Below are positions 3,222 to 60,705 of a DNA stretch of 64,000 bases, piece by piece (within the stretch, counting starts at the first letter, position 1; every line of letters begins with the position of its first letter). The position numbers and the translations under genes were made by a program. The notes beneath the pieces were generated by a model. It was not told where the DNA came from, ran no database searches, and saw only the letters and a program-made list of their open reading frames with translations. Where the stretch lies: assembly GCA_963513695.1 (NCBI GenBank), contig CAUPRL010000014.1, forward strand, positions 14,050-78,049, given 5' to 3'. This stretch comes from an uncultured Flavobacterium sp. (GTDB lineage Bacteria > Bacteroidota > Bacteroidia > Flavobacteriales > Flavobacteriaceae).

Positions 3222-3237
3222 TTTTAAATTGTATCAA

Positions 3238-4779: not shown

Positions 4780-4828
4780 TTTTTTTTACTATCAAAAAAT
4801 TGAATGTATTGTTAATTTTTGCTTCCAA

Positions 4829-6421: not shown

Positions 6422-6430
6422 GTTACTTAT

Positions 6431-8437
6431 TTATATTTTTTTGAATCGAATAGCAGTTCCTCCTGCTCCACCTAAATGCAATTTTAATACATCCGAAGCC
6501 TTTACCGTTTTTTTAGAAATGGCAACCGCTGATGGATTGTGTGTTTCATCCGTTCCTACAGCATCGGCATAAATCTGAGCTTCATAAGTAGCGTTGGCAT
6601 CCAAAAACGATAATTTAATTTCAAAATCTCTAGCTTTTTCGTTGGTAATACTTCCTAAATACCAATCGGCACTGTTTTGGTCTTTACGAACTGTAGTGAT
6701 GAATTCACCAATTTCTGCGTTCAAAACTTTAGTAGTTTCCCAATCTGTTGGAACATCTTTCAAGAATTGGAAAGAAGGGTTACCAGCATAATTTTCGGGC
6801 AGGTCAGCCAACATTTGAATTGGCGAATAAAAAACTACATATAAAGCCAATTGTTGAGCGGTTGTTCCGTGAATTCTTTTCCCAGGATACCCTTGTTTTA
6901 TTTCGACATCCAAAACGCCTGGGGTATAATCCATAGGGCCTGACAATAAACGGGTGAAAGGTAAAATGGTTACGTGATTTGGTGGATTCCCTTCGCTCCA
7001 CGCATTGTATTCTTGACCTCTGGCAGCTTCTCTAGCCAACATATTCGGATACGTTCTGCGTTCTCCTGTATCTTTTATTGGTTCGTGATAGAAAACAGCC
7101 AAATCATATTCGGCAGCTTTTTTCAATACATATCTGAAATAACTTACTCCAAATTGACCGTGATGCCATTCTTTCATATTCAATTTCGAACCTACATGAC
7201 CAATTTTTACGGTGTGAATTCCCAAGCGTTTGTACATCGCAAAACCTTCATCGATTTCTTTCAAATAATTAATCAAGTTGGAACCTGTTTCGTGGTATCC
7301 GATAAGCTCCACGCCTTTTTTATTTCCATACTCCACCACTTTGTCAATATCAAAATTATCGGCACATTTTGTAAAACTGAACATGTGCATATGGTTTTCG
7401 TACCAAGCTGGCGTCCAACCTTTATTCCATCCTTCAATCAACATATGATGAAATCCTTCTTTGGCCGTAAAATCTAGGTATTCAAAAGCATTTTTAGTAG
7501 TAGCACCTTGTTTTTCACTTTCCCAAAAAGTATATTTTCCGATGTGCATTCCCCACCAAATTCCTAAATATTTGTACGGTTTAAAATAATCTATCTTGCC
7601 TAATTTGTTCGGTTCGTTAAGATTTAAAATCAAATAGGAATCTATTAAATCTCCTGCATTTTCTCCTATTTGAATGGTTCTCCAAGGTGTGGTAAAAGTA
7701 TCTTTAACACGTACTTTGATTCCATCTGCCCAAGGAACTAAATCCGTTTTCAATTGAGTTCCAGTATTATTTACCAAAGTTGTACTGGCAAAATCGATTA
7801 AATTGGCTTCGTGAAAACTCAATTTCAGTCCACTTTTACTTTCGATTGTTAGAGGCGTATGCACTGTATCTAAAGTACTTACGGGGCTATCTTTGTATAG
7901 ATATTCGTAACGGTTTTCTCTGTAAGCAGGAATCCACCAAGCTTTCCCGTCCTCTTTTAGATTGAAAGTAGTTTTTTCATCCATGATAAAAATACTGTCT
8001 TTCGAAATCTGTTTTGGATAGACATATCGAAAAGCAACTCCGTCATCGAAAGCACGGAATTGAATTTCAAGTTGGCGTTTTTGCTTGTCTTTTTGTTGCA
8101 ATTTTACCACCAATTGGTTGTAGTGATTTCTAATTTTTTTCTTTTCTCCCCAAACTTGTTCCCAAGTCTCATCGAAAGTGGAATTTTCAACTTTAAGGAT
8201 TTCGAAATTTTTGCTAAAATCATCGTTATTCTTGAATAGAAAACCCATTTCAGATGGTGAAATCACTTCGGTTTTCCCGTGTGATACTGCATATATTGGA
8301 GCATTATCAACGAGCTCGAATTTTATTTTATTTTGACCGCCTGGCGAAGTCAATTCATACGATTTTGCTTTTTTTCCTTGCGCATTTCCTACAGCAATTG
8401 AAAGTAATAATGCGGGAAGAATCAGATTTTTAATCAT
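6431..8437 (-). CDS. GH97 family glycosidase (SusB-like alpha-glucosidase / alpha-galactosidase family)
   Basis: 668 aa with a signal peptide. Contains the GFHHMLIEGWNKGW and ARGQEYNAWSEG blocks characteristic of GH97. Confidence 0.8.
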   Translation of the reverse strand: MIKNLILPALLLSIAVGNAQGKKAKSYELTSPGGQNKIKFELVDNAPIYAVSHGKTEVISPSEMGFLFKNNDDFSKNFEILKVENSTFDETWEQVWGEKKKIRNHYNQLVVKLQQKDKQKRQLEIQFRAFDDGVAFRYVYPKQISKDSIFIMDEKTTFNLKEDGKAWWIPAYRENRYEYLYKDSPVSTLDTVHTPLTIESKSGLKLSFHEANLIDFASTTLVNNTGTQLKTDLVPWADGIKVRVKDTFTTPWRTIQIGENAGDLIDSYLILNLNEPNKLGKIDYFKPYKYLGIWWGMHIGKYTFWESEKQGATTKNAFEYLDFTAKEGFHHMLIEGWNKGWTPAWYENHMHMFSFTKCADNFDIDKVVEYGNKKGVELIGYHETGSNLINYLKEIDEGFAMYKRLGIHTVKIGHVGSKLNMKEWHHGQFGVSYFRYVLKKAAEYDLAVFYHEPIKDTGERRTYPNMLAREAARGQEYNAWSEGNPPNHVTILPFTRLLSGPMDYTPGVLDVEIKQGYPGKRIHGTTAQQLALYVVFYSPIQMLADLPENYAGNPSFQFLKDVPTDWETTKVLNAEIGEFITTVRKDQNSADWYLGSITNEKARDFEIKLSFLDANATYEAQIYADAVGTDETHNPSAVAISKKTVKASDVLKLHLGGAGGTAIRFKKI

Positions 8438-8486
8438 TGTTTTTGTATTTAAATTTTAAATAAATCGGTTTTCCGACTACCCTTTA

Positions 8487-10886: not shown

Positions 10887-10913
10887 TGTTTTGGTATTTG
10901 GATTTACATTTTT

Positions 10914-13397
10914 TTATTTAACATTTATAATTGTTGTGCTACTTTGAAGCCCGTTTGCACTCGCTGTTAATTCTAACTTTTCTGCCTTGTTTCCTGCTTG
11001 AATTACGACCAAACATTTCCCGTTAAGGGCAGTATGTTTAGTTCCTTTATACGATTCGTGACTTACTGGGTCACCACTGCAAACTCCAACAATTTTTCCA
11101 CTTCCTTTTAATGAAAATTGGATTTCATTGTTGGCATTTGGCGAAAGAACTCCTTTTTCATCGGTAATATCTACAGTTACAAAAGACAAATCGTTGCCGT
11201 CGGCTGTTATTGTATTTCGGTCGGCTGTTAATTTTAATTTACTTGGATTTTCTGCCGTTTGAATAGCTGTTTCTTTCACTATTTTTCCGTTTTTACGAGA
11301 AATAGCTTTTAGAGTTCCTGACTGAAATGGCACTCGCCACATAATGTGCAAATCGTCTCCTATTTTCTTTTTGGTTCCTAATGATTTTCCATTCAGAAAT
11401 AGTTCAACTTCTTCGGCATTATTGTAGTAGACCCAAACATCAACATTTTGACCTGATTTCCAGTTCCAATGTGGGAAAAGATGCAAAACGGTTTTGTTTG
11501 TCCATTCACTTTGATACATATAATAAACATCTTTGGGGAAACCCGCCAAATCTACAATCCCGAAATAGGAACTTACAGATGGCCATTCGTAAGGCGTTGG
11601 TTCACCTATATAATCGAAACCCGTCCAGATGTACATTCCCGCAAGGAAATCGTATTTTTTCATCACTTTCCAAGTGGCTTCGTGAGTAGAACCCCAAGGC
11701 GCTTGCACTTGGTCGTAAGCCGAAACGGTATTGCCTGGATTTCCATCGGTAAATTTTAAATCCCAGCGAACAGGCCATTTCTTAATCACATCTGAAACGG
11801 AATCGTAATAACCACGAGTTTCTAATGCCGAAGTAGTTTCGGTAGCTATAAAAGGAATTTTTGGGAAGTTTTTTTGATGGTGTTCAAAAGTTTGATGGGC
11901 ATAATTGTAACCTATAATATCCAAAGCTCCCGAAGTTGCTAACTTATTGAAATAGGTTTTAGACTTTTCAAATTGCAAAGTTACTTCATCAATATTCATA
12001 TTTACGGCTGGATTCATAGCCGCAGTCACTAATCTTGTTGTATCTAATTTTTTTACAATTGCCGCCAATTCTTTGGCAATCACTACACCTTCATCACTCC
12101 ATTGCTCTGGAATTTCGTTTCCAATACTCCACATAAATATACTTGGATGGTTGCGATCTCGAAGGATTTGATCCTGTAAATCTTTGGCGTGCCATTGATC
12201 CCAGTCGAGACTGTAATCGTATTTGGTTTTGGCTTTTTTCCACATATCGAATGCTTCGTCCATAACTATGAAACCCATTTTATCGCAAAGATCTAATAGT
12301 TCTGGAGCAGGCGGATTATGAGAAGTCCGAATACCATTGACACCCATTTCTTTTAGAATCTCTAACTGACGTTCAATCGCTCTGGTATTAATAGCCGAAC
12401 CGAGTGGTCCTAAATCATGGTGCATGCAAACTCCCTTGATTTTGACTAGTTTTCCATTTAGAATAAAACCTTTATTAAGATCAAATTTGAAATTTCTAAT
12501 TCCGAAATTGGTTTTGTATTCGTCAACAATCTTGCCTTCTACGATAATAGTTGTAACCGCAGTGTATTGTTCAGGTTTTTCTACAGACCACAAAATAGGA
12601 TTTTTAACAATAATATCTTGATTTTGGACTTGACTTGCATTTGCTGCAATAGTTATATTTTGAGTAGCCGAAGTTACTTTAGTACTATTTTTGAAAATTG
12701 AAGTTGTAACAGTAACAGTTTTTGAAGAATTATATTGGTTTTTCAAAGTGGTTTCTAAATGCACTGAAGCACTTTCTGTTGTTACTTTTGGGGTTGAAAT
12801 GTAAGTTCCCCATTGGTCAACATGCAATTTATCTGTTGTTTCTAACCACACATTCCTAAAAATTCCTGAACCTGAATACCAACGAGAGTTAGGTTGTTTT
12901 GAATTATCAACTTTCACTATTATTTCATTGACTTTATCTCCATAATTTAAATAAGGAGAAAGCTCGTATTGAAAACCAATATAACCATTTGGGCGTTTGC
13001 CAAGATAATGACCATTTATCCAAACTTCACTATTTCGATACACCCCGTCAAAAATTATTGAAGTAATTTTATCTTTATTTTCAAGGGCAACTTTAAATGT
13101 TTTTTTATACCAACCCAAACCTCCATTTAATGATCCTCCACCGTAACCTGCTGGACTTTTTTCATCAAATTCACCTTCAATACTCCAATCATGAGGAAGA
13201 TTTAAAGTTCGCCAAATTGTAGTAGTATTGATAGTATCGTTATCTTTTACCTTATCATTCAAATGAAAACTCCATCCTGTATTAAAAATAACTTTTCTAT
13301 TACTAAAGTCAGGATTATCTTTTTTGATAGTAAATGCAAAAGCTGAAATCAGACCAAATATGGCAAGTGATCTAAAAAAATAGATTTGATTTTTCAT
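10914..13397 (-). CDS. GH2 beta-galactosidase-like glycosidase, first gene of the operon visible here
   Basis: 827 aa. Contains the NHPSIFMWSIGNE acid/base block, an N-terminal sugar-binding domain (LPHDWSIEGEFD) and a C-terminal Ig-like region. Confidence 0.85.
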   Translation of the reverse strand: MKNQIYFFRSLAIFGLISAFAFTIKKDNPDFSNRKVIFNTGWSFHLNDKVKDNDTINTTTIWRTLNLPHDWSIEGEFDEKSPAGYGGGSLNGGLGWYKKTFKVALENKDKITSIIFDGVYRNSEVWINGHYLGKRPNGYIGFQYELSPYLNYGDKVNEIIVKVDNSKQPNSRWYSGSGIFRNVWLETTDKLHVDQWGTYISTPKVTTESASVHLETTLKNQYNSSKTVTVTTSIFKNSTKVTSATQNITIAANASQVQNQDIIVKNPILWSVEKPEQYTAVTTIIVEGKIVDEYKTNFGIRNFKFDLNKGFILNGKLVKIKGVCMHHDLGPLGSAINTRAIERQLEILKEMGVNGIRTSHNPPAPELLDLCDKMGFIVMDEAFDMWKKAKTKYDYSLDWDQWHAKDLQDQILRDRNHPSIFMWSIGNEIPEQWSDEGVVIAKELAAIVKKLDTTRLVTAAMNPAVNMNIDEVTLQFEKSKTYFNKLATSGALDIIGYNYAHQTFEHHQKNFPKIPFIATETTSALETRGYYDSVSDVIKKWPVRWDLKFTDGNPGNTVSAYDQVQAPWGSTHEATWKVMKKYDFLAGMYIWTGFDYIGEPTPYEWPSVSSYFGIVDLAGFPKDVYYMYQSEWTNKTVLHLFPHWNWKSGQNVDVWVYYNNAEEVELFLNGKSLGTKKKIGDDLHIMWRVPFQSGTLKAISRKNGKIVKETAIQTAENPSKLKLTADRNTITADGNDLSFVTVDITDEKGVLSPNANNEIQFSLKGSGKIVGVCSGDPVSHESYKGTKHTALNGKCLVVIQAGNKAEKLELTASANGLQSSTTIINVK

Positions 13398-24148: not shown

Positions 24149-24442
24149 TTATTTAGATTTGAATAATTTTTCCAGACTATTAAGATGCGAAACAAATGAT
24201 GCTCTACCCAAATTGGTAACTCGATACGATGTTTTTGGTTTTTTGCCAACAAATTCTTTTTTGATTTCGATATATGCGCCTTTCTCTAAGGCTGAGGAAT
24301 GACTTGCTAAATTGCCATCTGTTATATTTAATAGGGTTTTCATTTCGGTGAAATCTACCCAATCATTGACCATCAGAATAGACATAATGCCTAGTCGGAC
24401 ACGACTTTCGAAATCTTTATTTAGTTTATCAATGATTCCCAT
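24149..24442 (-). CDS. Small winged-helix transcriptional regulator (HTH_34-like)
   Basis: 97 aa. The pattern RLGIMSILMVNDWVDFTEMKTLLNITDGNLASHSSALEKGAYIEIKKEF.GKKPKTSYRVT.LG is typical of this wHTH family. Confidence 0.7.
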   Translation of the reverse strand: MGIIDKLNKDFESRVRLGIMSILMVNDWVDFTEMKTLLNITDGNLASHSSALEKGAYIEIKKEFVGKKPKTSYRVTNLGRASFVSHLNSLEKLFKSK

Positions 24443-27630: not shown

Positions 27631-28092
27631 CTAATTTTTCTCAAAAGTAATATAATCTGTACCGCCACTTCCGCCACTTATGTGAACCAACTTAATTTTT
27701 GAATCCGTTTTTTCAAGAATATTCCAGTCTTCTGTAAGCTCTTCAAAATTAGGAGGTGAGGCAAATGCAATATTGAAATCTAAATCATCGCTTGGACTAT
27801 CGTCTCCACTATCATCACTTGTTACCGACCAAGTTCCTAAATAAGTATTTACCCCATTCGTCGCTGTTAAAACATTACTAGAACCAAATGTAAAATTATA
27901 CCCCGTAAAATTTGAAGTTTCAATTACACCTGAATCTTCATAAAAAGTAATCCTCCAAGTTCCTTTCTTTACAATATTTATCACTGGAGTTGGATCGACA
28001 GAATTGCTTGAGGAATTATCATTGCTACAAGAAAAAAATAAATTTAGCATAATAGCAATTACCACAACCCGTAAAACATTAAAATTTCTCAT
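27631..28092 (-). CDS. Small lipoprotein of unknown function
   Basis: Lipobox LFFSC-SND. 153 aa, Ser/Asp-rich linker, beta-rich. Confidence 0.55.
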   Translation of the reverse strand: MRNFNVLRVVVIAIMLNLFFSCSNDNSSSNSVDPTPVINIVKKGTWRITFYEDSGVIETSNFTGYNFTFGSSNVLTATNGVNTYLGTWSVTSDDSGDDSPSDDLDFNIAFASPPNFEELTEDWNILEKTDSKIKLVHISGGSGGTDYITFEKN

Positions 28093-28143
28093 TTTTATAA
28101 TTTTTAAATTTTCAATAATAACGCAATCTATAAGAATTTAGTA

Positions 28144-28151
28144 CAAAACTA
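28144..28151 (-). promoter_or_regulatory. Candidate -7 promoter box
   Basis: The plus strand reads CAAAACTA, so the minus strand reads TAGTTTTG. It lies 51 nt from the ATG at 28092. Confidence 0.35.
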
Positions 28152-28513
28152 TTTCTTTTTTGGACACGAATTAAAAACAAAATAATACATAAATCGGACA
28201 GAACATTTAAAACTAGTACGCAAAAACACGCTTGAAAAATTTGAAAGGTAGTGGACCTAAAGTTCCTCTAATAGTTTGATTGTAGTCAAGAAAAGCAATC
28301 ACAGCAACAATAAAAAATCGAATAAACTATCCAACACAATTGCAATTCTATTTCATTGAAGTTCTATATAAACTAATGTTGTAAAATTTAAAGATTAGTA
28401 TAAAAAAAACCAATTGACAAGTGTTTTTTTTAGGGAAATAATTAAAAAATTGTTGATAATAAACTCCATCGATAAAAAACTTGAAGAATTGCAATGCTTA
28501 AGATTTACTTAAC

Positions 28514-28527
28514 ATGACAATTGTCAT
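28514..28527. promoter_or_regulatory. Perfect 14-bp palindrome ATGACAATTGTCAT, candidate operator
   Basis: Read directly from the sequence. It ends 22 nt upstream of the -7 box at 28550, so it lies over the expected -33 region. Confidence 0.4.
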
Positions 28528-28549
28528 ACTTTAACAATCAGACAATCAA

Positions 28550-28557
28550 TATATTTG
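28550..28557 (+). promoter_or_regulatory. Candidate -7 promoter box for the DUF2271-like gene
   Basis: TATATTTG lies 50 nt upstream of the ATG at 28608. Confidence 0.45.
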
Positions 28558-28607
28558 ACTATAATTAATCCCCAAAAAATAATTATAAACTTAAACTAAA
28601 TTAAATC

Positions 28608-29495
28608 ATGAAGACAAAATTCTTTTCTCTAGGTTTTTTTGCTGTAGCATTATTTTTTTCAGCAAAAGTTTCATCTCAAACTGTTGGAACAATGACATAC
28701 ACATTTACAACTGTAAAAATCGGGTCTAATACCAAGCAAGTTATGGGCGTATGGGTTGAAAATGCTGCCGGTACTTTCATCAAAACAAGATTACTCTACA
28801 CAACTTCTACAAAAACTGACGATCATTTTCCAGTTCTAAGTGCAAAGAATGGAGCGACTGCCGCCAGTACAGCAGACTCGGCAGGTATGGATGTTACTTC
28901 GGGCGATAATACAGGAGCGGGACCTGGCGGTATTAATGCAGTAACTGGGGCGACTCGTTCAAGTACTACTTCTCCTGTTGCTTGGGGTTCGTATTCGGTT
29001 GCTTGGGATGGTACAAATTCTTCTTCAGTTGCAGTTGCAGATGGTATTTACAAAATTTGGGTTGAGTTGACTGCCGATGGCAATGCTGCATCCGATGCCC
29101 ATGATTTTATTAATACGGGGTATTCTTTCACAAAAGGAGCCTCAGTTTATGACACAAACATCTCTTCTCCTATTGCTAATAATACCGTTTTGACTTCAAA
29201 TAGAATTGTCTGGACACCATCGGCTTTGAGTCTTGATAGCGTATACAAAACAAAAATAGCTATCTATCCTAACCCAAGTAATGGAGTAATAAATGTGAAT
29301 TACAATGATATTCCTGTAAGCAAAATAGATGTAGTCAATGTTTTAGGGCAAGTAGTAAAATCAATAAAACTAGACACATCTTCATCAGAGACCACAGAAA
29401 GTATTGATTTGTCAGGGAATGCAAATGGACTATACATTATTAATGTTTCTACCAATGAAACTTCATCTAGTTATAAGGTAGTTTTAGATAAATAA
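28608..29495 (+). CDS. Secreted DUF2271-like protein with an ApbE-type flavinylation motif and a T9SS type-A C-terminal sorting domain
   Basis: Has a Sec signal peptide. GVWVENAAGTFIKT and VAWDGTNSSSVAVADGIYKIWVE resemble DUF2271. NAVTGATRS is a [S/T]GA[S/T] motif with T116 at nt 28953-28955. The C-terminus KIAIYPNPSNGVINV...GLYIINV...YKVVLDK is a Por secretion tail. Confidence 0.7.
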   Translation: MKTKFFSLGFFAVALFFSAKVSSQTVGTMTYTFTTVKIGSNTKQVMGVWVENAAGTFIKTRLLYTTSTKTDDHFPVLSAKNGATAASTADSAGMDVTSGDNTGAGPGGINAVTGATRSSTTSPVAWGSYSVAWDGTNSSSVAVADGIYKIWVELTADGNAASDAHDFINTGYSFTKGASVYDTNISSPIANNTVLTSNRIVWTPSALSLDSVYKTKIAIYPNPSNGVINVNYNDIPVSKIDVVNVLGQVVKSIKLDTSSSETTESIDLSGNANGLYIINVSTNETSSSYKVVLDK

Positions 29496-29549
29496 TATAT
29501 TATTACAAATAGAAAAAAAAGCATTGGTCAGTTTTGATTGATGCTTTTT

Positions 29550-30557
29550 TTATTCTCCAACCTCAGATAATATGGTTTTCAAACCAGGAGTTTCGTAAAC
29601 CTGATAATTTCCATAGCCATCGGAATAAATCAAATAGGCTTGCAATTCTGGATGTTTCTTCAAAAAAACTTTGGCTTTTTCAAGTCCCAAAACGAGGACA
29701 CCTGTTGCATAAGCGTCAGATATCATACATTTTTTAGCGAAAATTGAAACGCTTAATAAATTGTTTTTTGTGGGATATCCCGTTTTGGGATCAATATGAT
29801 GTACATATTTTACACCATCTTCCATAGTGAATCTGCGATAGTTTCCCGAAGTGGCTACAGCCATGTCCTCTAATTTAGCGATAGCTTTTAGGGAATTTAT
29901 TGTTTCTTTATTGTCGATCGGTTTTTCAATACCTATTTTCCAATTACTGCCATCTGAATTTCTGCCTTTTGCATAGACTTCTCCACCTATTTCGACGATG
30001 TATGCCGCTATACCTCTAGAATTTAAAAAATCCGAAACCACATCTACAGAATAGCCTTGGGCAAATGCGTTAAAATCCAAAGCTACTCTTGGGTCTTTTT
30101 TGATGACTTGATTTCCTTTCAATTCAATTAATTGAAAGTCAACAAAATTAAGAATACTGTCAATTTTTGATTTTTCTAACTTTTGTTTCTTACCGGGTCC
30201 AAACCCGTACGCATTTACAAGGGGATAAACGGTGGGGTCAAAAGCTCCATTAGTATTTTTCCAAACTTCCTTGGCCTTCTTAAAACACGCTTTAAAATAG
30301 TTGTCAACAATTACATTTTTATCATTAGAATTGATTCTAGAAATGATAGAATTGGGGATATAAGTGGAAACAGACAAATCGAAATTTTTAAGAATCTTTT
30401 CAATTTCTGGCTGAAAATTTCTGTTTTTAGCATCAAAATAAGTGATATGATAGGTTGTGCCCTGAGCATTTCCCTCAATTTTCATCGGTGAGGATTGACC
30501 ATAAATAGCTGCCGTAATTAGCCCTATAAATCCAAAACAAAACCTAATCTTTTCCAT
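29550..30557 (-). CDS. apbE: FAD:protein FMN transferase
   Basis: 335 aa with a signal peptide. The ApbE-family pattern includes VATSGNYRRF and ISDAYATG. Confidence 0.88.
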   Translation of the reverse strand: MEKIRFCFGFIGLITAAIYGQSSPMKIEGNAQGTTYHITYFDAKNRNFQPEIEKILKNFDLSVSTYIPNSIISRINSNDKNVIVDNYFKACFKKAKEVWKNTNGAFDPTVYPLVNAYGFGPGKKQKLEKSKIDSILNFVDFQLIELKGNQVIKKDPRVALDFNAFAQGYSVDVVSDFLNSRGIAAYIVEIGGEVYAKGRNSDGSNWKIGIEKPIDNKETINSLKAIAKLEDMAVATSGNYRRFTMEDGVKYVHHIDPKTGYPTKNNLLSVSIFAKKCMISDAYATGVLVLGLEKAKVFLKKHPELQAYLIYSDGYGNYQVYETPGLKTILSEVGE

Positions 30558-30616
30558 AATTTCTAATGAATTAGAATATGTACATTTATTTTTTCTGACA
30601 AAAAAACACGAACTCC

Positions 30617-31660
30617 CTAGTAACTTGATTCATCTAATTGTACTTTCCCATTGAAAGTTTTGTATAAAAATAAAAAATAAAAAGCTAGCAATGGTGCACC
30701 AATCAAGACAATTGTGAGCATAATTCCCAAAGATTTCTGAGAAGAAGCCGCATTATAAATAGTAATACTATACTGAGAATCAATCGTTGAAAGCAATAAA
30801 GTCGGATACAACTGAAAGGCAACCAGCATCAACAAAAAGGCCATGGTCAATGATGAAAAAACTAAGGCTAGAAAATACTTCTTTTTGGAAACCAATCGAG
30901 GCACATTGGCAACAGCTAAAAAGGACAAAACAGGCAAAACAAAAAACAAAGGATTTTCTTTGAATTTATCAGTAACTCCAGGTATAAAAATCAATGTATA
31001 CAGAGAAGTAATAGAAAAACTGGTAATAAAGAATATCATTCCTTTTTTTAATAAAAAAGTCAATCTGGCGTGCAATCTACCCTCGGTTTTTAACAATAAA
31101 AAAATACCACCTTGAGTCATAAAAATAGACAAAGTGGTGCATCCTGTCATTAGTGCATAAGGACTTAAAAAGGATAAAAATATTCCTCCGTGGTAACTAT
31201 AGTTTGCCCCTATTTCAAAACCTTGAATGACATTTCCTAAAACCACGCCCAACAAAAAAGCAATTGAGATATTGGAAACGGAATAAATAATATCCCAAGT
31301 CTTTCGCCACCATAACATTTTTTCAGCGCTCCTAAACTTGATAGCCGACGAACGTAAAACTAGCATCATCAAAAACAACATAAATGGAATATACATTGCG
31401 GATAACATGGTAGCATACATCACTGGAAATCCAGCAAACAACGCACCTCCACCAATAATTAACCAAACTTGATTGGCATCCCAAATGGGGCCAATTGCAT
31501 TAATAGCGATACGTCTGCTTTCGTCTTTCCTAAAAAATAAATGCCAAGAACCTGCGCCATAATCAAATCCTTCTAAAATAGCATAACCTGAAAACAACAA
31601 TCCAACTACTAAATACCAAAGGGTAGGGTAATCTATTCCTAAAAAAGTTTCCATAATCAC
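30617..31660 (-). CDS. cydB: Cytochrome bd ubiquinol oxidase subunit II
   Basis: 347 aa and polytopic. It starts 5 nt after cydA and has a typical CydB N-terminus (LWYLVVGLLFSGYAILEGFDYGAG). Confidence 0.9.
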   Translation of the reverse strand: MIMETFLGIDYPTLWYLVVGLLFSGYAILEGFDYGAGSWHLFFRKDESRRIAINAIGPIWDANQVWLIIGGGALFAGFPVMYATMLSAMYIPFMLFLMMLVLRSSAIKFRSAEKMLWWRKTWDIIYSVSNISIAFLLGVVLGNVIQGFEIGANYSYHGGIFLSFLSPYALMTGCTTLSIFMTQGGIFLLLKTEGRLHARLTFLLKKGMIFFITSFSITSLYTLIFIPGVTDKFKENPLFFVLPVLSFLAVANVPRLVSKKKYFLALVFSSLTMAFLLMLVAFQLYPTLLLSTIDSQYSITIYNAASSQKSLGIMLTIVLIGAPLLAFYFLFLYKTFNGKVQLDESSY

Positions 31661-31665
31661 TCCTA

Positions 31666-33015
31666 TTAAATACTTTTCAATTGATTTTGAACATCATCAT
31701 CATACGGACCATGTTTAATTTTCTTATTTAGGGAGTACAAAAACAACGCAAATAAAACCGAATAAACAAATAGAAATAAAAACAATGAAAACAAAATTTG
31801 ATTGGCAGATACTTCTTGCGAAAAGCCTTCACTAGTTCTTAAATGTCCGTAAACTATCCATGGTTGCCTCCCCATTTCAGCAGCGAACCAACCTGCTTGA
31901 TTGGCGATTTGTGGCAATAATACCGAGAAAGAAAAGATCCACATAAGCCATTTGGTGTCGAACAATCTTCCCCTCCACCACAAAAAGCAAGCATAAAATG
32001 TGAGTGCAATCAAAAACATTCCGATGGAAATCATAATGTGATAAAATTGAAATACAGCATTTACTTGACTGGGTCGGTCCTCTTTAGGGAAGGAATTCAA
32101 TCCTATAATTGGTTTTTTAAAATCTTGATGAACCAAAAAAGATAAACCACCTGGGACAGCTATGCCAGTCACTTCTTGCGTTTTATTATTCACCCAACCT
32201 GCCAGATACAAATCGGCTGGAGCTGATTTCGCATAATGTCCTTCCATAGCAGCTAATTTTGCCGGTTGATTTACCGCAACGCCGTCTGCTGAACTATGCC
32301 CAGAAAGCAATTGAGTAAAAGAAACCACGGTGGCAACTATCAATGCAATTTTGAATGCTTTTTTTGAAACTTCTATAAATATTCCTTTCCGAATATAATA
32401 GGCATGAACACTCAAAACCATAAACGCGCCCGCCAAAAAAGCGCCTTGCCATACATGGACAATGCGGTCTGCACTCGAAGGGTTAAAAACCATAGCCCAA
32501 AAATCGGTTACTTCGGCCCGTGCGGATAATCCCTCGCCTACGATATGATAGCCAGCTGGTGTTTGTTGCCAACTGTTGGCTACTACAATCCAAACTGCTG
32601 AAAACATTGACCCTAAAAAAACTCCAATTGTCGAAATAAAATGGACTCTTGGTGAGACTCTATTCCATCCAAAAATTAATATTCCCAAAAACGTACTTTC
32701 AAGTCCGAAAGCAAATAAACCTTCGGCGGCTAATGCACTGCCAAAGATATCGCCAACATATCTGGAATAAACTGCCCAGTTCGTTCCAAATTCAAATTCC
32801 ATGATAATACCTGTCGCAACCCCAATTCCGAAGGTTATAGCAAAGATTTTCAACCAAAACTTAGTTAAAATTTCATAGTGTTTGGACCCGGTTTTCAAAT
32901 ATAATCCTTCCATTATTACCATAATCAACCCTATTCCTATACTCAAAGGCGGATAAATATAATGGAATGCAATAGTGAAGACAAACTGAATTCGTGCTAA
33001 TATTTCAACGTCCAT
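31666..33015 (-). CDS. cydA: Cytochrome bd ubiquinol oxidase subunit I
   Basis: 449 aa. The N-terminus ARIQFVFTIAFHYIYPPLSIG and the block AAEMGRQPWIVYG are CydA signatures. Confidence 0.92.
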   Translation of the reverse strand: MDVEILARIQFVFTIAFHYIYPPLSIGIGLIMVIMEGLYLKTGSKHYEILTKFWLKIFAITFGIGVATGIIMEFEFGTNWAVYSRYVGDIFGSALAAEGLFAFGLESTFLGILIFGWNRVSPRVHFISTIGVFLGSMFSAVWIVVANSWQQTPAGYHIVGEGLSARAEVTDFWAMVFNPSSADRIVHVWQGAFLAGAFMVLSVHAYYIRKGIFIEVSKKAFKIALIVATVVSFTQLLSGHSSADGVAVNQPAKLAAMEGHYAKSAPADLYLAGWVNNKTQEVTGIAVPGGLSFLVHQDFKKPIIGLNSFPKEDRPSQVNAVFQFYHIMISIGMFLIALTFYACFLWWRGRLFDTKWLMWIFSFSVLLPQIANQAGWFAAEMGRQPWIVYGHLRTSEGFSQEVSANQILFSLFLFLFVYSVLFALFLYSLNKKIKHGPYDDDVQNQLKSI

Positions 33016-33055
33016 AATTTGTGTTTAAATTATATAAAATTCATCGTCCAAATAG

Positions 33056-33100
33056 TTCGCCTAAGCATCAGAGCTTGTAGCATGCTCGACTTAGTGCGAA
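33056..33100 (-). other. GC-rich three-helix hairpin in the cydA upstream region
   Basis: Pairings are TTCGC/GCGAA, CTAAG/CTTAG and GAGC/GCTC, 14 bp in total with one bulge. It lies 41-85 nt upstream of the cydA ATG and is not followed by a U-run. Confidence 0.4.
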
Positions 33101-33190
33101 AATAGTAATCTTCTAAAATGCAACATTAAAATCAAATCTTTACATGCATTTCTAGTGATCTAGCTATTGCAAGTAATAGTCACTTCCTCA

Positions 33191-33215
33191 AAAAGACTTA
33201 AAAATCTTGTCTTTT
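33191..33215 (-). terminator. Probable argS terminator
   Basis: AAAAGAC-loop-GTCTTTT; on the minus strand a T-run follows the stem. Confidence 0.5.
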
Positions 33216-33237
33216 AAAGCAATAATTAAATCAAAAA

Positions 33238-35016
33238 CTACATCCTTTCTGGAACGTCAATTCCTAACAATTGAAATGCCAAAGCTATGGTATCAGCCAC
33301 TTTTTTAGAAAGTTGCACTCTGAATATTTTTTTGTCTAAATCTTCTTCACCTAAAATTGAAACTGCTTGGTAAAAGGAATTGTATTCTCGAACCAAATCA
33401 TAAGTATAATTCGCAATCAAAGCTGGACTGTGATTTTGAGCCGCATTTTGAATCACTTCTGGAAACAATTCGAGCTGCTTTATCAATTCTTTTTCTTTTT
33501 CGTGTAAGATTGTAATGCTGCTTGGTGCAGTAAAATCGAAATTGGCTTTGCGAATAATCGACTGAATTCTAGCATAAGTATATTGAATAAACGAACCTGT
33601 ATTCCCAGCAAAATCTACTGATTCAGCTGGGTCAAAAAGGATTCGTTTTTTTGGATCGACTTTCAAAATGTAATACTTCAAAGCACCTAGTCCAATTGTT
33701 TTGTAAAGTTTTGATTTTTCTTCAACAGAATAACCGTCTAGTTTTCCTAGATCTTCTGCAATATTCTGAGCTGTATCGGTCATTTCCTGCATCAAATCAT
33801 CAGCATCTACAACAGTTCCCTCTCTAGATTTCATTTTTCCAGAAGGCAAATCGACCATCCCATAAGATAAATGATAGAGATTTTCCGACCAATCGAAACC
33901 CAATTTTTTCAAGATTAAAAACAATACTTTGAAATGGTAATCTTGCTCATTTCCTACGGTATAAACCATCCCTCCCACATCTGGAAAATCCTTCACACGC
34001 TGAATGGCTGTTCCAATATCTTGTGTCATATAAACCGCAGTTCCGTCTGAACGCAATACTATTTTTCTGTCTAAACCTTCGTCAGTCAAATCAATCCAAA
34101 CCGAACCATCAGGATCTTTTTCGAAAATACCCTTTTCTAAACCTATTTGAACTACATCTTTCCCTAACAAATAAGTATTGCTTTCGTAGTAATATTGATC
34201 GAAATCGACTCCCAAATTTTTATAAGTTGTTGCAAAACCATCATAAACCCACTGATTCATTTTTTTCCACAACGCAATTACTTCAACATCGCCAGCTTCC
34301 CATTTTAGCAGCATTTCTTGGGCTTCTAAGATGATTGGCGCTTGTTTTTTGGCCTCATCTTCGGTTTTTCCTTCGGCAATTAATTGATTGATTTCTTCTT
34401 TAAACGCTTTGTCAAAAGCAACATAATAATTCCCAACCAATTTGTCTCCTTTTAATCCGGTTGATTCTGGAGTTGCACCCTTTCCAAATTTTTTCCAAGC
34501 CAACATCGACTTGCAAATATGAATGCCTCGATCGTTGATGATTTGCGTTTTATATACTTTTTTACCTGAAGCTTTTAGAATTTCCGCAACAGAATAACCC
34601 AAAAGATTATTACGAACGTGTCCTAAATGTAAAGGTTTATTGGTGTTTGGTGAAGAATATTCAACCATTATTGCTTTTTCTTCTGGGCTGGGCGTAACAA
34701 AACCAAATTTTTCGTCTGTTCGAATTTCATTGAAAAAATTCAAATAGTATTCATCTGAAATTACTATATTCAAAAAGCCTGAAACTACATTAAAACGGCT
34801 CACTTCGGGAACATTATCGACCAAATAGTTGCCTATTTTATTTCCTAATTCAACTGGGTTGCTTTTGATGACTTTCAATAGAGGAAAAATCACCATCGTT
34901 ATATCACCTTCAAATTCCTTGCGTGTGGATTGAAATTCAACTTTATCGATAGTGATATCAAATAATGTAAAAACTGCTTTTTCTATTGAGGGCGTAAGAA
35001 TCTGTGATAAGGTCAT
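33238..35016 (-). CDS. argS: Arginine--tRNA ligase
   Basis: 592 aa. Contains SSPNTNKPLHLGHVRN (HIGH region) and a class I core plus a DALR-type C-terminal domain ending in M. Confidence 0.95.
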   Translation of the reverse strand: MTLSQILTPSIEKAVFTLFDITIDKVEFQSTRKEFEGDITMVIFPLLKVIKSNPVELGNKIGNYLVDNVPEVSRFNVVSGFLNIVISDEYYLNFFNEIRTDEKFGFVTPSPEEKAIMVEYSSPNTNKPLHLGHVRNNLLGYSVAEILKASGKKVYKTQIINDRGIHICKSMLAWKKFGKGATPESTGLKGDKLVGNYYVAFDKAFKEEINQLIAEGKTEDEAKKQAPIILEAQEMLLKWEAGDVEVIALWKKMNQWVYDGFATTYKNLGVDFDQYYYESNTYLLGKDVVQIGLEKGIFEKDPDGSVWIDLTDEGLDRKIVLRSDGTAVYMTQDIGTAIQRVKDFPDVGGMVYTVGNEQDYHFKVLFLILKKLGFDWSENLYHLSYGMVDLPSGKMKSREGTVVDADDLMQEMTDTAQNIAEDLGKLDGYSVEEKSKLYKTIGLGALKYYILKVDPKKRILFDPAESVDFAGNTGSFIQYTYARIQSIIRKANFDFTAPSSITILHEKEKELIKQLELFPEVIQNAAQNHSPALIANYTYDLVREYNSFYQAVSILGEEDLDKKIFRVQLSKKVADTIALAFQLLGIDVPERM

Positions 35017-35233: not shown

Positions 35234-38200
35234 ATGCAAAGCCCAATGAAAAATAGCCTTCTGATTATACTTTCACTTTTTTGGATTGGGTGTTTTTCGC
35301 AAACCATTACCGTAGACACAAGCACTTATACTGTTCCTCAATTAGTTACAGATGTTTTGGTTAATAAATCTTGTGTTCCTGTAAGTAACATTAGTTGGAG
35401 AACTGGAACTAATTTTGGTTCTTCGAACGGAATAGGATATTTTGAAAACACCAATCCGTTATTTCCACTTTCGAGTGGTGTAATTTTGAGTACGGGCAAT
35501 GTTGCAAATGCTCCAGGACCCAATACAATGGATCTTAATGACGGAAATGCCGCTTGGACTGGCGATGCTGATTTGGAAGCAACCTTATTAGCATCAGGAA
35601 TCAGTGTAAATTCGACAAATGCAACCGTTTTGGAATTTGACTTTGTTCCTTTATCTTCAAATTTTGACTTTCGCTTTTTATTTGCGTCTGAAGAATATGG
35701 TAATTTCCAATGCCAATTTTCAGATGCTTTTACCTTTTTGCTTACAAACAATGCGACTGGAGTGACTACAAATCTTGCCGTCGTGCCTGGTACTTCAACA
35801 CCAATATCAGTTACTACTATTAGAGATTTTATATATAATTCCTCCTGTCCATCTGTAAATTCGACTTATTTTGGAGCATTCAATGGCGGTTCTGATGCAG
35901 CAAGTTCTGCCACAAATTTCAATGGCCAAACCGTAGTAATGAGTGCATCATCAAACAGTTTGATTCCAAATACAAACTACCACATAAAATTGGTGATTGC
36001 TGACCGACAAGACAGCCAATCGGATTCTGCAATATTTTTAGGTGCCAATAGCTTCAATGTTGGGCAAGATGTTCTAGGTCCAGATTTAACTATTGCTGCA
36101 AATACAGCCATTTGTCATAACGGTTCACATACGCTTATTTCAGGATTGAATCCAGCCATCTATTCATTTGCTTGGACCTACAATGGAAACCCTATAGGAG
36201 GAAACACACCTGATTTGATTGTAACCCAACCTGGCACCTACGGACTTACTTATACGGTCATTGCAACCTCGTGCCCAGTTACCACCGATTATATCAACGT
36301 TGAATTTTATCCCCAAATTATAACGCCTGACCCTTTAAATTTGTTTAAATGCAATTCAGGACTTCCAAGTTATACTTTTGATTTGTCGATTAACACTCCA
36401 ATAGTTAGCATTCCCGGAACACAAATAAGCTATCATTCATCAGTAGCAAATGCAACTTCAAATAGTAGTCCACTTCCAACTGTTTTAACCTTTCCAACAG
36501 CTCTTTTACCTGCTCCAATATGGGTAAGAATCGAAGACACTTATTCGAAATGTTTTATTACAAAATCTTTCCAATTAGGAATAACACCTCCTCCTCTTGC
36601 CAACAAACCAGCTGACATTACGCTATGCGAAACTACACCAGGTACAAATACTGCTAATTTTAATATTGGCGGACAAACGTCGACTGTATTGGGCGGACAA
36701 TCATCAACAATTTATGATGTTTCTTACTATTCAAATGCTGCCGATGCCAATGCTGGCATGAATCCAATAAATACGTCTGCACCATTTACCTCTGGAAGTA
36801 AGACCCTTTTTGCAAGAATTCAAACTACTACCGATCCGACTTGCTTCAGCACAACCAATTTTAAAATTGTAGTCATTCCGAGACCTGTTCTAGACCAAAG
36901 AATAAATCAATTTGTTTGTGGAAGTTACACTTTACCTCCATTAGTAAACCCTGGTAATTACTATTCAGGTCCAAACCAAGGCCTTCCAATTTTGAATGCT
37001 GGAGATGTAATCACAACAGACCAAATTGTTTATCTTTTTAGTACTACATCAGGAACTCCAAGTTGCCCTATTGAAAGTAGTTTTTATGTGACCATAGTCG
37101 AACCTTTAGATGCTGACCCTACCGATTTAACAGTTTGCGACCAATATCAATTACCTACTACCCCTTTTGGTCTTCGCTATTTTTCATTGCCGGGAGGTCC
37201 GAGTGGCGGTGGAACCGAATATCCCGGAGGAACTATAATAACCACGGTTGGAACAACTACAATTTACACCTATTTTGAATCGACAGATATTGCTAATCCC
37301 TGCATTCTTGAAGGTCAATTTAACATCACTATTGATTTAACACCTATAATTGCTCCAATTGCCAATGTTTTTGAATGTAGTTCCTACAGTTTGCCACCAC
37401 TGACAGTGGGCGATTATTACACTTATGACACTGTTACAGGAATATACACGCCAGCAATTTCCCCAATAACCACGACTACCACGCTCTATGTTTTTGCAAC
37501 AAACAATTTATGCAGAACACCTAATACCGTCTTTACAGTTTACATTGGTAGCTTTGGTTTTACAGATGTTATCGAATGCGTTTCTTATACTTTGTCGCCA
37601 GCTCCTGTTGGCGAATATCGTGATGCTCCAAATGGAGGAGGAAACTTGGTACTGCCCGGACTAATTTCGAGTACCATACAAATATTTACTTATGTACCAG
37701 GAGCAGCCTGCGCAACCGATTCCTTTACCATTACCATAAATGCTCCATTTCTTACTACACCAACAAATGTCAATGCTTGCGATAGTTTCCTATTACCAAC
37801 TCAAAGTGAAGGCGGCAATTATTATAGCTTAGCTGGAGGTCCATCAACACCAGGAAATGTAGAATTGATTCCAAATAGTACCTTAACAACCACTCAAACA
37901 ATATATATTTATAAAGCATCAACAATTGTTGCGGGTTGCTACAATGAAATACCTTGGACCATTACTGTCAGCAAAAAACCAAAAATTGATTCTCGAGCCA
38001 ATGTTGACCAATGCAATTCGTATGTATTAAGTCCATTGAAAAATGGAGCCTATTTTGATGACCCAAATGGGGTGAATCCCATCCCCGCCGGAACGATGAT
38101 AAGTGCTAACAATAGAATCTATATTTATGCGGCCAACCCAAGCGACCCAAGTTGTTTTAACGAAAACTTTTTTGATATTTCCATAAATGGAGTGGAAGCC

Positions 38201-39493
38201 GATCCAATTCCAACGCAATTAGCCTATTGTGACAGCTTTACTTTTCCTCCCTTGCCAACACCAAATAATTTTTATTATGATGCCCCTGGTGGTCCATTGG
38301 GTGGAGGAAATAGTATTCCGCCAGGAACAACGGTAACAGCTGCAACAGTGCTTCCAAATTACTATATTTACTATGAAACTGGTGACCGATTGAATTGTAG
38401 TGATGAAAATCAGTTTAGCATCACTATCACGCCAAGACCAGTTGCAAATCCAGTAACACCTTTGGAAACTTGCGATACATTTGCCACAAACGACGGAATC
38501 TTTCAATTCGATTTGACTAGTTTAGCCATTAGAAATCAAGTTTTGAATGGACAAACACCCGATGCCAATTTTACATTAACTTTTTATACTTCTTTGGCTG
38601 CTGCCAATGATATAAATGCAATTCCTATTGCAAATCCTGCTACTTATCAAAATGACACTCCATTTTCTGATAGCGTTTGGATTAGAGTAGCCAACAATAC
38701 TTCGGCAGTGGCTTGTTTTGATGTTGTCGAATTAAATTTAATCGTCAATTTATTTCCAGAACCACAACTACTCGCAGAATATTTTATTTGCGAAGATCAT
38801 GAAACGGGTACTTTATTAAATCCTGCTACTTTAGATTCTGGAATATCAGGAGCCAATATTTTATTCGAATGGACATATAATGGAGCTCCATATGGTGGCA
38901 ACAGCCCTACCATTACAACAACCCAAGTTGGTGATTATGTGGTAAAAGCAACGAATATCGCAACCTTATGTTCTAAAACTGCATCAGCAAAAGTGATTAA
39001 ATATGCTCCTTATTTAGAAGTAACTTATAGCGATGCATTTGATTATCCTACTTTTATATCGGTAAATGTATTGGGTGCTGGTTCTGGAAATTATGAATAT
39101 CAATTGGATGATTTGCCTTTTCAAGACAGCAACACCTTCAATAATGTAATGCCAGGAGAACACACTACTGCTGTAAGGGACAAAAATGGCCATTGCAATC
39201 CTGCTCCAATGAAGGCTATCATCATCAACTATCCCAAATTCTTTACACCAAATGGAGATGGTTACAATGAAACCTGGAACATCAAACATTTAGCATTAAC
39301 CAACCCGAATGCGCCAATATATATTTTTGATAGATATGGAAAATTCCTGAAACAAATAAGCCCTACGAGCGAAGGTTGGAATGGCACATTCAACGGACAG
39401 CCTCTTCCTTCGACCGATTATTGGTTTACTGTAGATTATGATGAGAAAGGCAGTTCAAAAGTGTTCAAGTCACATTTTACGTTGAAGAGGTAA
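35234..39493 (+). CDS. Giant T9SS type-B (gliding-motility CTD) surface protein with a choice-of-anchor-L N-terminal domain
   Basis: Has a signal peptide. The N-terminal domain contains SGVILSTGN, ATVLEFDFVP and FLFASEEYGNF. Repeat modules fill the middle. The C-terminus FFTPNGDGYNETWNI...GWNGTFNGQPLPSTDYWF is the type-B sorting domain. Confidence 0.85.
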   Translation: MQSPMKNSLLIILSLFWIGCFSQTITVDTSTYTVPQLVTDVLVNKSCVPVSNISWRTGTNFGSSNGIGYFENTNPLFPLSSGVILSTGNVANAPGPNTMDLNDGNAAWTGDADLEATLLASGISVNSTNATVLEFDFVPLSSNFDFRFLFASEEYGNFQCQFSDAFTFLLTNNATGVTTNLAVVPGTSTPISVTTIRDFIYNSSCPSVNSTYFGAFNGGSDAASSATNFNGQTVVMSASSNSLIPNTNYHIKLVIADRQDSQSDSAIFLGANSFNVGQDVLGPDLTIAANTAICHNGSHTLISGLNPAIYSFAWTYNGNPIGGNTPDLIVTQPGTYGLTYTVIATSCPVTTDYINVEFYPQIITPDPLNLFKCNSGLPSYTFDLSINTPIVSIPGTQISYHSSVANATSNSSPLPTVLTFPTALLPAPIWVRIEDTYSKCFITKSFQLGITPPPLANKPADITLCETTPGTNTANFNIGGQTSTVLGGQSSTIYDVSYYSNAADANAGMNPINTSAPFTSGSKTLFARIQTTTDPTCFSTTNFKIVVIPRPVLDQRINQFVCGSYTLPPLVNPGNYYSGPNQGLPILNAGDVITTDQIVYLFSTTSGTPSCPIESSFYVTIVEPLDADPTDLTVCDQYQLPTTPFGLRYFSLPGGPSGGGTEYPGGTIITTVGTTTIYTYFESTDIANPCILEGQFNITIDLTPIIAPIANVFECSSYSLPPLTVGDYYTYDTVTGIYTPAISPITTTTTLYVFATNNLCRTPNTVFTVYIGSFGFTDVIECVSYTLSPAPVGEYRDAPNGGGNLVLPGLISSTIQIFTYVPGAACATDSFTITINAPFLTTPTNVNACDSFLLPTQSEGGNYYSLAGGPSTPGNVELIPNSTLTTTQTIYIYKASTIVAGCYNEIPWTITVSKKPKIDSRANVDQCNSYVLSPLKNGAYFDDPNGVNPIPAGTMISANNRIYIYAANPSDPSCFNENFFDISINGVEADPIPTQLAYCDSFTFPPLPTPNNFYYDAPGGPLGGGNSIPPGTTVTAATVLPNYYIYYETGDRLNCSDENQFSITITPRPVANPVTPLETCDTFATNDGIFQFDLTSLAIRNQVLNGQTPDANFTLTFYTSLAAANDINAIPIANPATYQNDTPFSDSVWIRVANNTSAVACFDVVELNLIVNLFPEPQLLAEYFICEDHETGTLLNPATLDSGISGANILFEWTYNGAPYGGNSPTITTTQVGDYVVKATNIATLCSKTASAKVIKYAPYLEVTYSDAFDYPTFISVNVLGAGSGNYEYQLDDLPFQDSNTFNNVMPGEHTTAVRDKNGHCNPAPMKAIIINYPKFFTPNGDGYNETWNIKHLALTNPNAPIYIFDRYGKFLKQISPTSEGWNGTFNGQPLPSTDYWFTVDYDEKGSSKVFKSHFTLKR
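36899..38440 (+). repeat. Seven tandem ~67-81-aa protein modules inside the adhesin gene
   Basis: Each module follows C.(S/Q)(Y/F).LP...G.YY..P.G......I.....IY.Y......C..E..F.ITI. The lead Cys residues are at 562, 635, 715, 782, 849, 927 and 999. Confidence 0.75.
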
Positions 39494-60641: not shown

Positions 60642-60705
60642 CTATTTTATTCTACCCTTTCAGAGTTTTGAACTCTGAAAGGGTTATATAATACAAAAAG
60701 AAAAA

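Follow-up and report, generated by a model that had tools for sequence, protein, structure and literature searches.

Organization of the locus

In a 64,000-nucleotide (64-kb) stretch of DNA from an uncultured Flavobacterium sp. (contig CAUPRL010000014.1; the whole stretch is called the window below), an open reading frame (ORF) of 295 aa combines a predicted Sec signal peptide, a divergent DUF2271-type domain with a conserved flavinylation motif and a C-terminal domain (CTD) of the kind sorted by a type IX secretion system (T9SS), and it converges on an apbE gene. With a probability of roughly 0.6, its product is a DUF2271-class redox carrier that would be flavinylated by ApbE in the periplasm, exported by the T9SS and then hand electrons to acceptors outside the cell. 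Re-checking of the window bore out the ORF as well as the coordinates and neighbours that a preliminary description of the sequence had given. The features are as follows.

27631..28092, minus strand: gene of a 153-aa lipoprotein, divergent neighbour of the flavoprotein gene (no Pfam family)
28514..28527, no strand assigned: perfect 14-bp palindrome ATGACAATTGTCAT, candidate operator, 94 nt upstream of the ATG (pattern match and conservation)
28550..28557, plus strand: TATATTTG, match to the Bacteroidetes-type −7 box (TAnnTTTG) and predicted promoter, ~51–58 nt upstream of the ATG (consensus match)
28608-29495, plus strand: ORF of the predicted 295-aa flavoprotein (ORF call and translation)
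28608..28679, plus strand: predicted Sec signal peptide MKTKFFSLGFFAVALFFSAKVSSQ, residues 1–24 (inspection and conserved layout in homologues)
28677..29243, plus strand: divergent DUF2271-type domain, residues ~24–212, beta-sandwich (profile homology and AlphaFold)
28917..28937, plus strand: 7-residue insertion AGPGGIN, residues 104–110, in the loop directly before the flavinylation motif (orthologue alignment)
28944..28955, plus strand: T113-G114-A115-T116, predicted ApbE site with flavin mononucleotide (FMN) on Thr116 (motif and conservation)
29262..29492, plus strand: type-A T9SS sorting domain, residues 219–295 (PF18962, TIGR04183 and structural match)
29514..29551, no strand assigned: bidirectional intrinsic-terminator hairpin with A-/T-run flanks, between the convergent genes (RNA folding)
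29550..30557, minus strand: apbE, flavin adenine dinucleotide (FAD):protein FMN transferase with an N-terminal signal sequence (PF02424, E 1.4e-81)
30617..33015, minus strand: cydB and cydA, encoding cytochrome bd oxidase and lying upstream of apbE (PF02322, E 7e-87; PF01654, E 2e-159)

As judged by inspection and by orthologue conservation, MKTKFFSLGFFAVALFFSAKVSSQ has an n/h/c layout and no lipobox Cys; the segment is an N-terminal helix in the AlphaFold model, and the layout is kept in all homologues, which is consistent with the Sec signal peptide proposed earlier.

The predicted flavinylation motif

A scan of a genome collection yielded 77 related loci, from Flavobacterium, Gaetbulibacter, Yeosuana, Crocinitomicaceae, Prolixibacteraceae, Paludibacter, Bacteroidales metagenome-assembled genomes (MAGs), Cloacimonadota and one Myxococcales bin; the counts below are quoted over 80 loci, 82 loci or 84 loci other than the window.

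The codons for residues 113–116 are ACT GGG GCG ACT. Flavinylation by ApbE at the motif [S/T]GA[S/T] was demonstrated experimentally in one proteobacterial DUF2271 protein (Meheust et al. 2021, PMC8238504). In the homologue alignment A111, G114 and T116 are invariant, and R117 almost so, down to 31% identity, and the terminal Thr is kept in all 63 of 63 non-redundant homologues. The 80 loci across Bacteroidota hold 98 genes, and in 90 of these the position aligned with the motif reads [ST]-G-x-[ST], with N-x-[VT]-D-A-x-[ST]-G-[ASTPN]-T as consensus. Of the 149 best-ranked representative clusters, 120 contain the motif. The motif noticed as TGAT at 28944–28955 is conserved down to 26–31% identity.

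The T9SS sorting domain

The C-terminal domain matches Por_Secre_tail (PF18962; E 1.4e-13, residues 219–292 of 295) and the type-A model TIGR04183 (E 1.6e-11), as expected from the type-A tail described earlier. In the AlphaFold model it superposes on the CTDs of cargo bound in the SprA translocon with TM scores of 0.77–0.83 (best match 8glk_D, 0.83). Of the 98 genes (80 loci), 91 have a CTD, as do at least 101 of the 149 best-ranked representative clusters, and in both sets the motif and the CTD occur together in most members. T9SS core genes were not identified in the 64-kb window. A second T9SS cargo gene lies 6 kb from the locus (35234-39493, plus strand); it encodes 1,419 aa ending in a CHU_C (type-B) domain, and its orthologues carry annotations for Choice_anch_L and FIDD domains. 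Indirect support for T9SS machinery in this organism comes from that cargo gene and from its placement in the genus Flavobacterium.

A divergent DUF2271 domain

The assignment of the N-terminal domain to DUF2271 had been made from two segments, which are located at residues 47–60 (GVWVENAAGTFIKT) and 131–153 (VAWDGTNSSSVAVADGIYKIWVE). It stands at the family level, and does not stand for the window protein taken alone (17.8 bits against a PF10029 gathering cutoff of 27.3). All of 27 aligned homologues match PF10029 at E≤0.1, with a best value of 1.9e-11. Short relatives that lack a CTD were found with the domain profile (E 1e-27 to 1e-41); nine of ten pass the PF10029 cutoff, and those that pass span profile positions ~13–125 of 136. 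Because the homologues match and the CTD-less relatives pass, the N-domain is, on profile homology, a divergent DUF2271 subfamily, an assignment valid at the family level only.

A search with the N-domain only returned 67 homologues, all Flavobacterium-like and all with the CTD, and an exhaustive search with a profile of the trimmed domain (A3) returned 2,394 clusters at 50% identity, of which 865 were found at E≤1e-10. Most subfamily members score under the Pfam DUF2271 cutoff. Since the published flavinylation survey used Pfam annotation, it probably under-counted this family.

A FlgD_ig match raised the question of identity with FlgD: the NCBIfam FlgD equivalog NF005176 scores 20.6 against a cutoff of 230, and matches to FlgD in the PDB have E values of 0.004–0.2. 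On these scores the FlgD_ig match probably reflects a shared beta-hairpin rather than a FlgD protein. The N-domain is all-beta in the AlphaFold model; fold searches with both models returned only generic beta-sandwiches for it, and no solved DUF2271-like structure was found in the PDB.

Two other groups of proteins were met in these searches. P0068 (955 aa), P0098 (572 aa) and P0112 (1080 aa) each have two to three DUF2271-type domains, each domain with a DA[IV]TGAT motif, and may be DUF2271-class proteins that are flavinylated at more than one site. Giant T9SS proteins of 1,200–3,300 aa were matched in an Ig-like hairpin only, and they lack the motif.

apbE and the respiratory neighbours

The ApbE protein of the window scores 274 bits with PF02424 (cutoff 25.6; profile positions 2–266 of 266) and matches NF007774 at E 1.3e-55; it stays under the NCBIfam cutoff for the E. 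coli-type equivalog (188.7 versus 498) and is thus a member of the family, not that equivalog. By inspection it has a hydrophobic N-terminus, consistent with a predicted extracytoplasmic location. The gene is convergent with the flavoprotein gene across a gap of 54 nt. An apbE gene lies within 600 nt of the DUF2271+CTD gene in 35 of the 80 loci (24 of the 54 loci flanked by 3 kb or more on either side). The arrangement is convergent in 28 loci, divergent in five and co-directional downstream in four (these in Bacteroidales, with gaps of 4–6 nt in three). As independent arrangements recur across Bacteroidota orders, a functional link to apbE is indicated rather than an inherited gene order, and the adjacency to which the preliminary description drew attention is upheld together with its conservation.

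The same does not hold for the respiratory tie proposed through a cydAB–apbE transcript. cydB (30617-31660) and cydA (31666-33015) lie on the strand of apbE with a cydB–apbE gap of 59 nt; the spacer forms no significant structure (z=0.10), as had been noted, and for want of a terminator co-transcription is plausible in the window. The adjacency occurs in only three of 82 loci (the window, F. nackdongense (L001) and the metagenome contig L085), all of one Flavobacterium sub-lineage; cydAB is therefore probably incidental and outside the system. An 80%-identical relative (L086) has cydAB absent and apbE reduced to an 89-aa fragment (10990–11259), so this genome must use another apbE or have lost the modification. 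The suggested link to PepSY modules fell away as well: the only PepSY_TM gene of the window (60706-62307, behind a TonB-dependent receptor gene in the stretch 58458–62307), which encodes the membrane class tied to DUF2271 in Proteobacteria, is ~30–31 kb off, and no PepSY homologue was found near the flavoprotein gene in the other 84 loci.

Gene neighbourhood in relatives

The loci were annotated with purpose-built hidden Markov models, and neighbours were ranked by an unbiased clustering of every ORF up to 6 kb away. The recurrent neighbour families are ApbE (34 loci), a protein of ~113 aa (27), DUF5777 (27), YceI (22), a tRNA_anti-like OB protein (20), a PAS histidine kinase (14), TonB-dependent receptors (8), extracytoplasmic function (ECF) sigma factors (7) and FecR (7). 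The ~113-aa protein is a cytochrome c lipoprotein, with a lipobox, a single CxxCH and weak matches to cytochrome c Pfam models. In Flavobacteriaceae the canonical order is OB, DUF5777, cytochrome c, YceI and DUF2271+CTD, followed by the convergent apbE, and in 7–8 loci ECF-sigma/FecR/TonB-receptor modules lie upstream of the gene.

In 11 Bacteroidales-type loci (L040, L052, L054, L058, L059, L061, L062, L076, L077, L079 and L080), multihaem cytochromes are found beside the gene. They include NapC/NirT-like proteins with 6 haems, c554/MtrC-like proteins with 4 haems and c7/c3 arrays of 16–19 haems fused to a cytochrome b561 domain, the last of which we take to be the architecture of Geobacter CbcL. 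From their gene content, these 11 look like complete extracellular electron-transfer clusters. L061 has three consecutive DUF2271+CTD genes, one of them encoding 781 aa.

Further c-type cytochromes are added to the neighbourhood in several Flavobacterium loci by small proteins with two CxxCH each (~153 aa; 220–455 aa), encoded on the minus strand upstream of the OB gene (L002, 1897–2358; L008, 3311–3772; also L012 and L024). The cytochrome c lipoproteins (for example L006, 1836–2180) share conserved residues after the lipobox, C-[ED]-S-[NS]-T-Y-x-E. Acidic residues right after the lipobox Cys can signal surface export of Bacteroidota lipoproteins, and the cytochrome c lipoprotein might itself be surface-exposed.

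The reduced locus of the window

None of the OB, DUF5777, cytochrome c and YceI genes was found by tblastn in the whole 64-kb window. The contig L085, which is 97.1% identical to the window in DNA over 28489–34000, has these four genes (1446–3667) directly upstream of a 288-aa orthologue, followed by apbE-cydB-cydA-argS as in the window. The homology of the two breaks at ~28489 (28461–28489), ~25 nt upstream of the operator. Upstream of the breakpoint lies ffh in the window, in F. nackdongense and in L086, with the 153-aa lipoprotein gene in between in the window and in F. nackdongense. As F. nackdongense, another species, has the version of the window, the four-gene block seems to have been exchanged or lost repeatedly within the genus. 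F. alvei has both the four-gene operon with its own paralogue and a window-type paralogue across apbE.

Between the window and L085, eight of 13 substitutions fall in the signal peptide; the changes in the flavoprotein gene cluster there and in the loop before the motif, and its pN/pS is 0.24, against 0–0.10 for the neighbouring genes. The AGPGGIN insertion is specific to the window copy, is missing in all 288-aa orthologues and lies in a region of low model confidence. The window and L085 orthologues have CTDs that are 100% identical. F. nackdongense, at 55% protein identity, retains the reduced arrangement with motif and CTD intact, which argues that the reduced locus is functional.

The link of the 153-aa lipoprotein to the system is loose. 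Its homologues lie within 10 kb of DUF2271+CTD genes in L001, L018, L026, L033 and L041, and in the last four of these they are also near ECF-sigma/FecR/TonB-receptor modules. The search for DUF5777 gave >6,100 matches, the best 120 of which reach down to 67% identity. Elsewhere in the window, a run of six glycoside-hydrolase (GH) and esterase genes on the minus strand (1272-13397; SASA esterase, GH5 with BACON, GH39, GH97, GH31 and GH2) looks like part of a polysaccharide-utilisation region.

Candidate operator, promoter and terminator

The palindrome ATGACAATTGTCAT is the sole exact match to ATGAYAWWTRTCAT in the 64-kb window. With a relaxed pattern, 22 occurrences were found in 1.31 Mb of related loci, of which 14 sit 24–136 nt upstream of window-type DUF2271+CTD genes; the genes with the operator span four genera, including Flavobacterium, Gaetbulibacter and Yeosuana. 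In divergent arrangements the palindrome lies between apbE and the flavoprotein gene, and within the same 1.31 Mb none was found upstream of the OB–DUF5777–cytochrome c–YceI operon. A TAnnTTTG box, a −7 consensus valid for Flavobacteria (PMC5609570), occurs at −51 to −72 in eight of the ten upstream regions inspected (none in L008 and L009), always ~35 nt downstream of the palindrome; a sigma-70 promoter scan is uninformative for Bacteroidetes promoters. L009 (CALPPA020000297.1), a 3.2-kb contig in a 'Klebsiella pneumoniae' MAG with a Flavobacterium-type DUF2271+CTD gene and the operator, is almost certainly mis-binned. The hairpin between the convergent genes folds at −16.9 kcal/mol on the plus strand (z=−4.64) and at −10.2 kcal/mol on the minus strand (z=−3.41).

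Two candidate regulators were rejected. Although Fur-like at first sight, the palindrome is unlike the Fur box of Riemerella (Flavobacteriales), ATTTAGAATTATTCTAAAT, and the spacing of its half-sites is unlike the classical 19-bp box; a paper on iron in F. psychrophilum gives no Fur box. Synteny of the HTH_34 gene (24149–24442) is limited to the window, F. nackdongense and L086; the other operator-bearing loci lack it, and no candidate regulator was found to travel with the palindrome. A search of 27900–30800 gave no FMN riboswitch or other RNA element.

Proposed mechanism and alternatives

In the proposed mechanism, Sec export would bring the 295-aa protein into the periplasm, where the ApbE encoded next to it would attach FMN covalently to Thr116. 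The T9SS would recognise the type-A CTD and move the folded, flavin-loaded protein across the outer membrane, where it would stay attached to the surface or be set free. Folding of T9SS cargo takes place in the periplasm and precedes passage through the outer membrane, and such a topology is feasible because both the flavoprotein and ApbE have predicted signal peptides and the system takes folded periplasmic cargo. In most relatives the flavoprotein gene closes an operon, and the likely electron route would consist of the other products of that operon: the OB-fold membrane-anchored protein, the DUF5777 outer-membrane barrel, the monohaem cytochrome c lipoprotein and the lipid/quinone-binding YceI-type protein. 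The window would hold a reduced version with the flavoprotein and apbE only, under its own promoter and palindromic operator.

The flavin would thus be placed outside the cell, with electrons presumably flowing outwards to acceptors there. For Flavobacterium, ferric iron, reduced for iron acquisition, would be the most plausible of these, as suggested by the ECF-sigma/FecR/TonB-receptor modules and by proteobacterial precedent. In anaerobic Bacteroidales, multihaem neighbours suggest that the flavoprotein would belong to a respiratory chain for electron transfer to the outside of the cell. The idea of extracellular electron transfer or iron reduction, raised earlier from the window alone, is strengthened by the cytochrome c, barrel, YceI, FecR/TonB and multihaem cytochrome genes of the relatives, as far as gene content can tell.

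Several points weigh against this mechanism. For every member of the subfamily, FMN attachment, secretion and redox activity are inferred from sequence. In the window protein the PF10029 match is partial as well as below the cutoff (E 0.0029, residues 108–154 to profile positions 63–102), and on the same stretch FlgD_ig (PF13860) passes with 32.3 bits over 44 residues (cutoff 27). The models of the N-domain are of moderate confidence, with a predicted local distance difference test (pLDDT) of <50 in the motif loop. The motif is usually preceded by Asp (D-A-x-T-G-A-T), for which the window clade has Asn or Gly and the window copy itself Asn; together with the 7-aa insertion, this substitution could impair recognition by ApbE. 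Of the loci whose flanks are long enough, about half lack a nearby apbE, and since ApbE also serves other flavoproteins such as Nqr, its adjacency alone is no proof. Finally, the window lacks the four partner genes that would account for the passage of electrons across the outer membrane.

A wider reading of the family, held to be less likely than not, is put forward tentatively: Bacteroidota would have a so far unrecognised outer-surface electron outlet with a T9SS-delivered, flavinylated DUF2271 protein as the terminal centre, fed via DUF5777, cytochrome c and YceI in aerobic Flavobacteriia or via CbcL- and MtrC-like cytochromes in anaerobic Bacteroidales, and the window gene would be a separately regulated, stand-alone paralogue.

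It is rather unlikely, although better placed than the other two alternatives below, that the protein is flavinylated and exported for another job, as an accessory of a surface redox enzyme, an oxygen/peroxide scavenger or a surface flavin carrier, with the co-location of cytochrome bd reflecting a shared response. Cytochrome bd is an oxidase tied to low-oxygen and stress conditions, and apbE follows cydAB with no terminator in the window, F. nackdongense and L085; in addition, the window lacks the partner conduit genes, and the gene's own operator is unlike the Riemerella Fur box, which leaves control by iron conjectural. Yet the cydAB adjacency is restricted to three of 82 loci, forms of 270–300 aa have no fused catalytic domain, and the cytochromes, the barrel and the FecR/TonB-receptor neighbours fit electron export and iron better.

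That the protein is a non-flavinylated, Ig-like T9SS surface protein (an adhesin or coat protein of FlgD_ig type), its TGAT a structural loop and its apbE neighbour inherited, is improbable. The passing FlgD_ig score beside the failing DUF2271 score, the generic beta-sandwiches returned for the N-domain and the many giant T9SS proteins that match the same profile region and lack the motif would all suit such a protein. Nevertheless, the invariance of G114 and T116 down to 31% identity and the presence of the motif in 90 of 98 genes go beyond the needs of a loop, apbE in three orientations in different Bacteroidota orders cannot be explained by inherited synteny, the relatives that lack a CTD clear the DUF2271 cutoff with matches along most of the profile, and the NCBIfam FlgD model falls far short of its own cutoff.

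It is highly improbable that the gene is a functionless, decaying leftover which lost its electron supply with the OB–DUF5777–cytochrome–YceI genes. In favour of this are the four partner genes of L085 at the place that ffh and the 153-aa lipoprotein gene occupy in the window, the unique insertion by the motif, the raised pN/pS and the adjacent apbE of L086, which is cut to a fragment. Against it, the window keeps an undamaged ORF, motif and CTD as well as its promoter box, operator and terminator, the CTD is unchanged relative to L085, pN/pS is well under 1, the same arrangement at 55% identity in F. nackdongense implies long-term selection, and the partner genes could sit elsewhere in the genome.

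Significance and comparison with known systems

ApbE flavinylation is known as a periplasmic or cell-wall modification, and the T9SS is known for hydrolases, adhesins and gliding proteins. The export of a flavin-loaded periplasmic protein by the T9SS, the mechanism preferred here, would if true join the two fields, give diderm Bacteroidota a counterpart of the surface flavoprotein PplA of Listeria, and provide a testable candidate for the reduction of extracellular iron or other acceptors by environmental and gut Bacteroidota. In the literature searched, no paper joins flavinylation or ApbE with the T9SS and none mentions DUF5777; no T9SS cargo with a covalent flavin was found there. The partner set of DUF5777, small cytochrome c lipoprotein, YceI and OB places uncharacterised families in a functional context, the operator, being conserved, offers a handle on regulation, and this wider cluster context makes the family more interesting than the single reduced locus of the window.

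The nearest known relatives are the proteobacterial DUF2271 proteins (for example Amantichitinum ursilacus WP_053936890.1; PMC8238504), which belong to the same domain family by transitive profile homology and likewise have [S/T]GA[S/T] with a terminal Thr, a Sec signal and apbE in the cluster. They are periplasmic proteins of ~135 aa with no secretion tail, whereas the present subfamily has the T9SS type-A CTD, and their partners are PepSY-like and DUF4198 proteins, in place of which DUF5777, cytochrome c, YceI and OB proteins or multihaem cytochromes are found here. In the part of the 2021 survey table available to us, one Flavobacterium cluster has a different apbE, with VKG_Carbox and NDH-2 (PMC8238504).

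PplA of Listeria monocytogenes, a flavinylated surface lipoprotein of flavin-based extracellular electron transfer, with its ApbE-like FmnB (cited in PMC8238504 and PMC11334425), is similar in that a small extracytoplasmic protein would carry FMN, attached by an ApbE-type enzyme encoded nearby, as the outermost protein-bound redox centre. The present protein would act in the manner of PplA and take the position of MtrC, yet it is a member of neither family. PplA has FMN_bind domains and a lipid anchor in a monoderm cell, while the protein described here is DUF2271-type in a diderm cell and its exposure would need the T9SS. Homologues of Ndh2, DmkA and EetAB of the Listeria system were not linked to the flavoprotein gene in the loci examined.

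With the porin-cytochrome conduits (Shewanella MtrCAB and Geobacter Pcc, served by inner-membrane quinol oxidoreductases such as CbcL), the relatives share an outer-membrane barrel gene, periplasmic c-type cytochromes and a predicted surface redox protein, all in one neighbourhood, and the Bacteroidales relatives share multihaem/cytochrome-b561 fusions and MtrC/MtrF-like domains. The parts of such a conduit are absent from the window, and the related loci hold partial analogues only. The outermost component of MtrCAB is a decahaem cytochrome delivered by the type II secretion system, against a predicted flavoprotein delivered by the T9SS here, and DUF5777 (~290 aa) is far smaller than MtrB-type barrels.

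Finally, the window protein resembles ordinary T9SS type-A cargo (the CTDs of F. johnsoniae NucA and RemA, 8glk and 8gl6, and of P. gingivalis HBP35, 5y1a) in the sequence and predicted structure of its CTD and in its N-terminal Sec signal; known cargo of this kind comprises hydrolases, adhesins and haem-binding proteins, whereas the protein described here would carry a covalently bound flavin.

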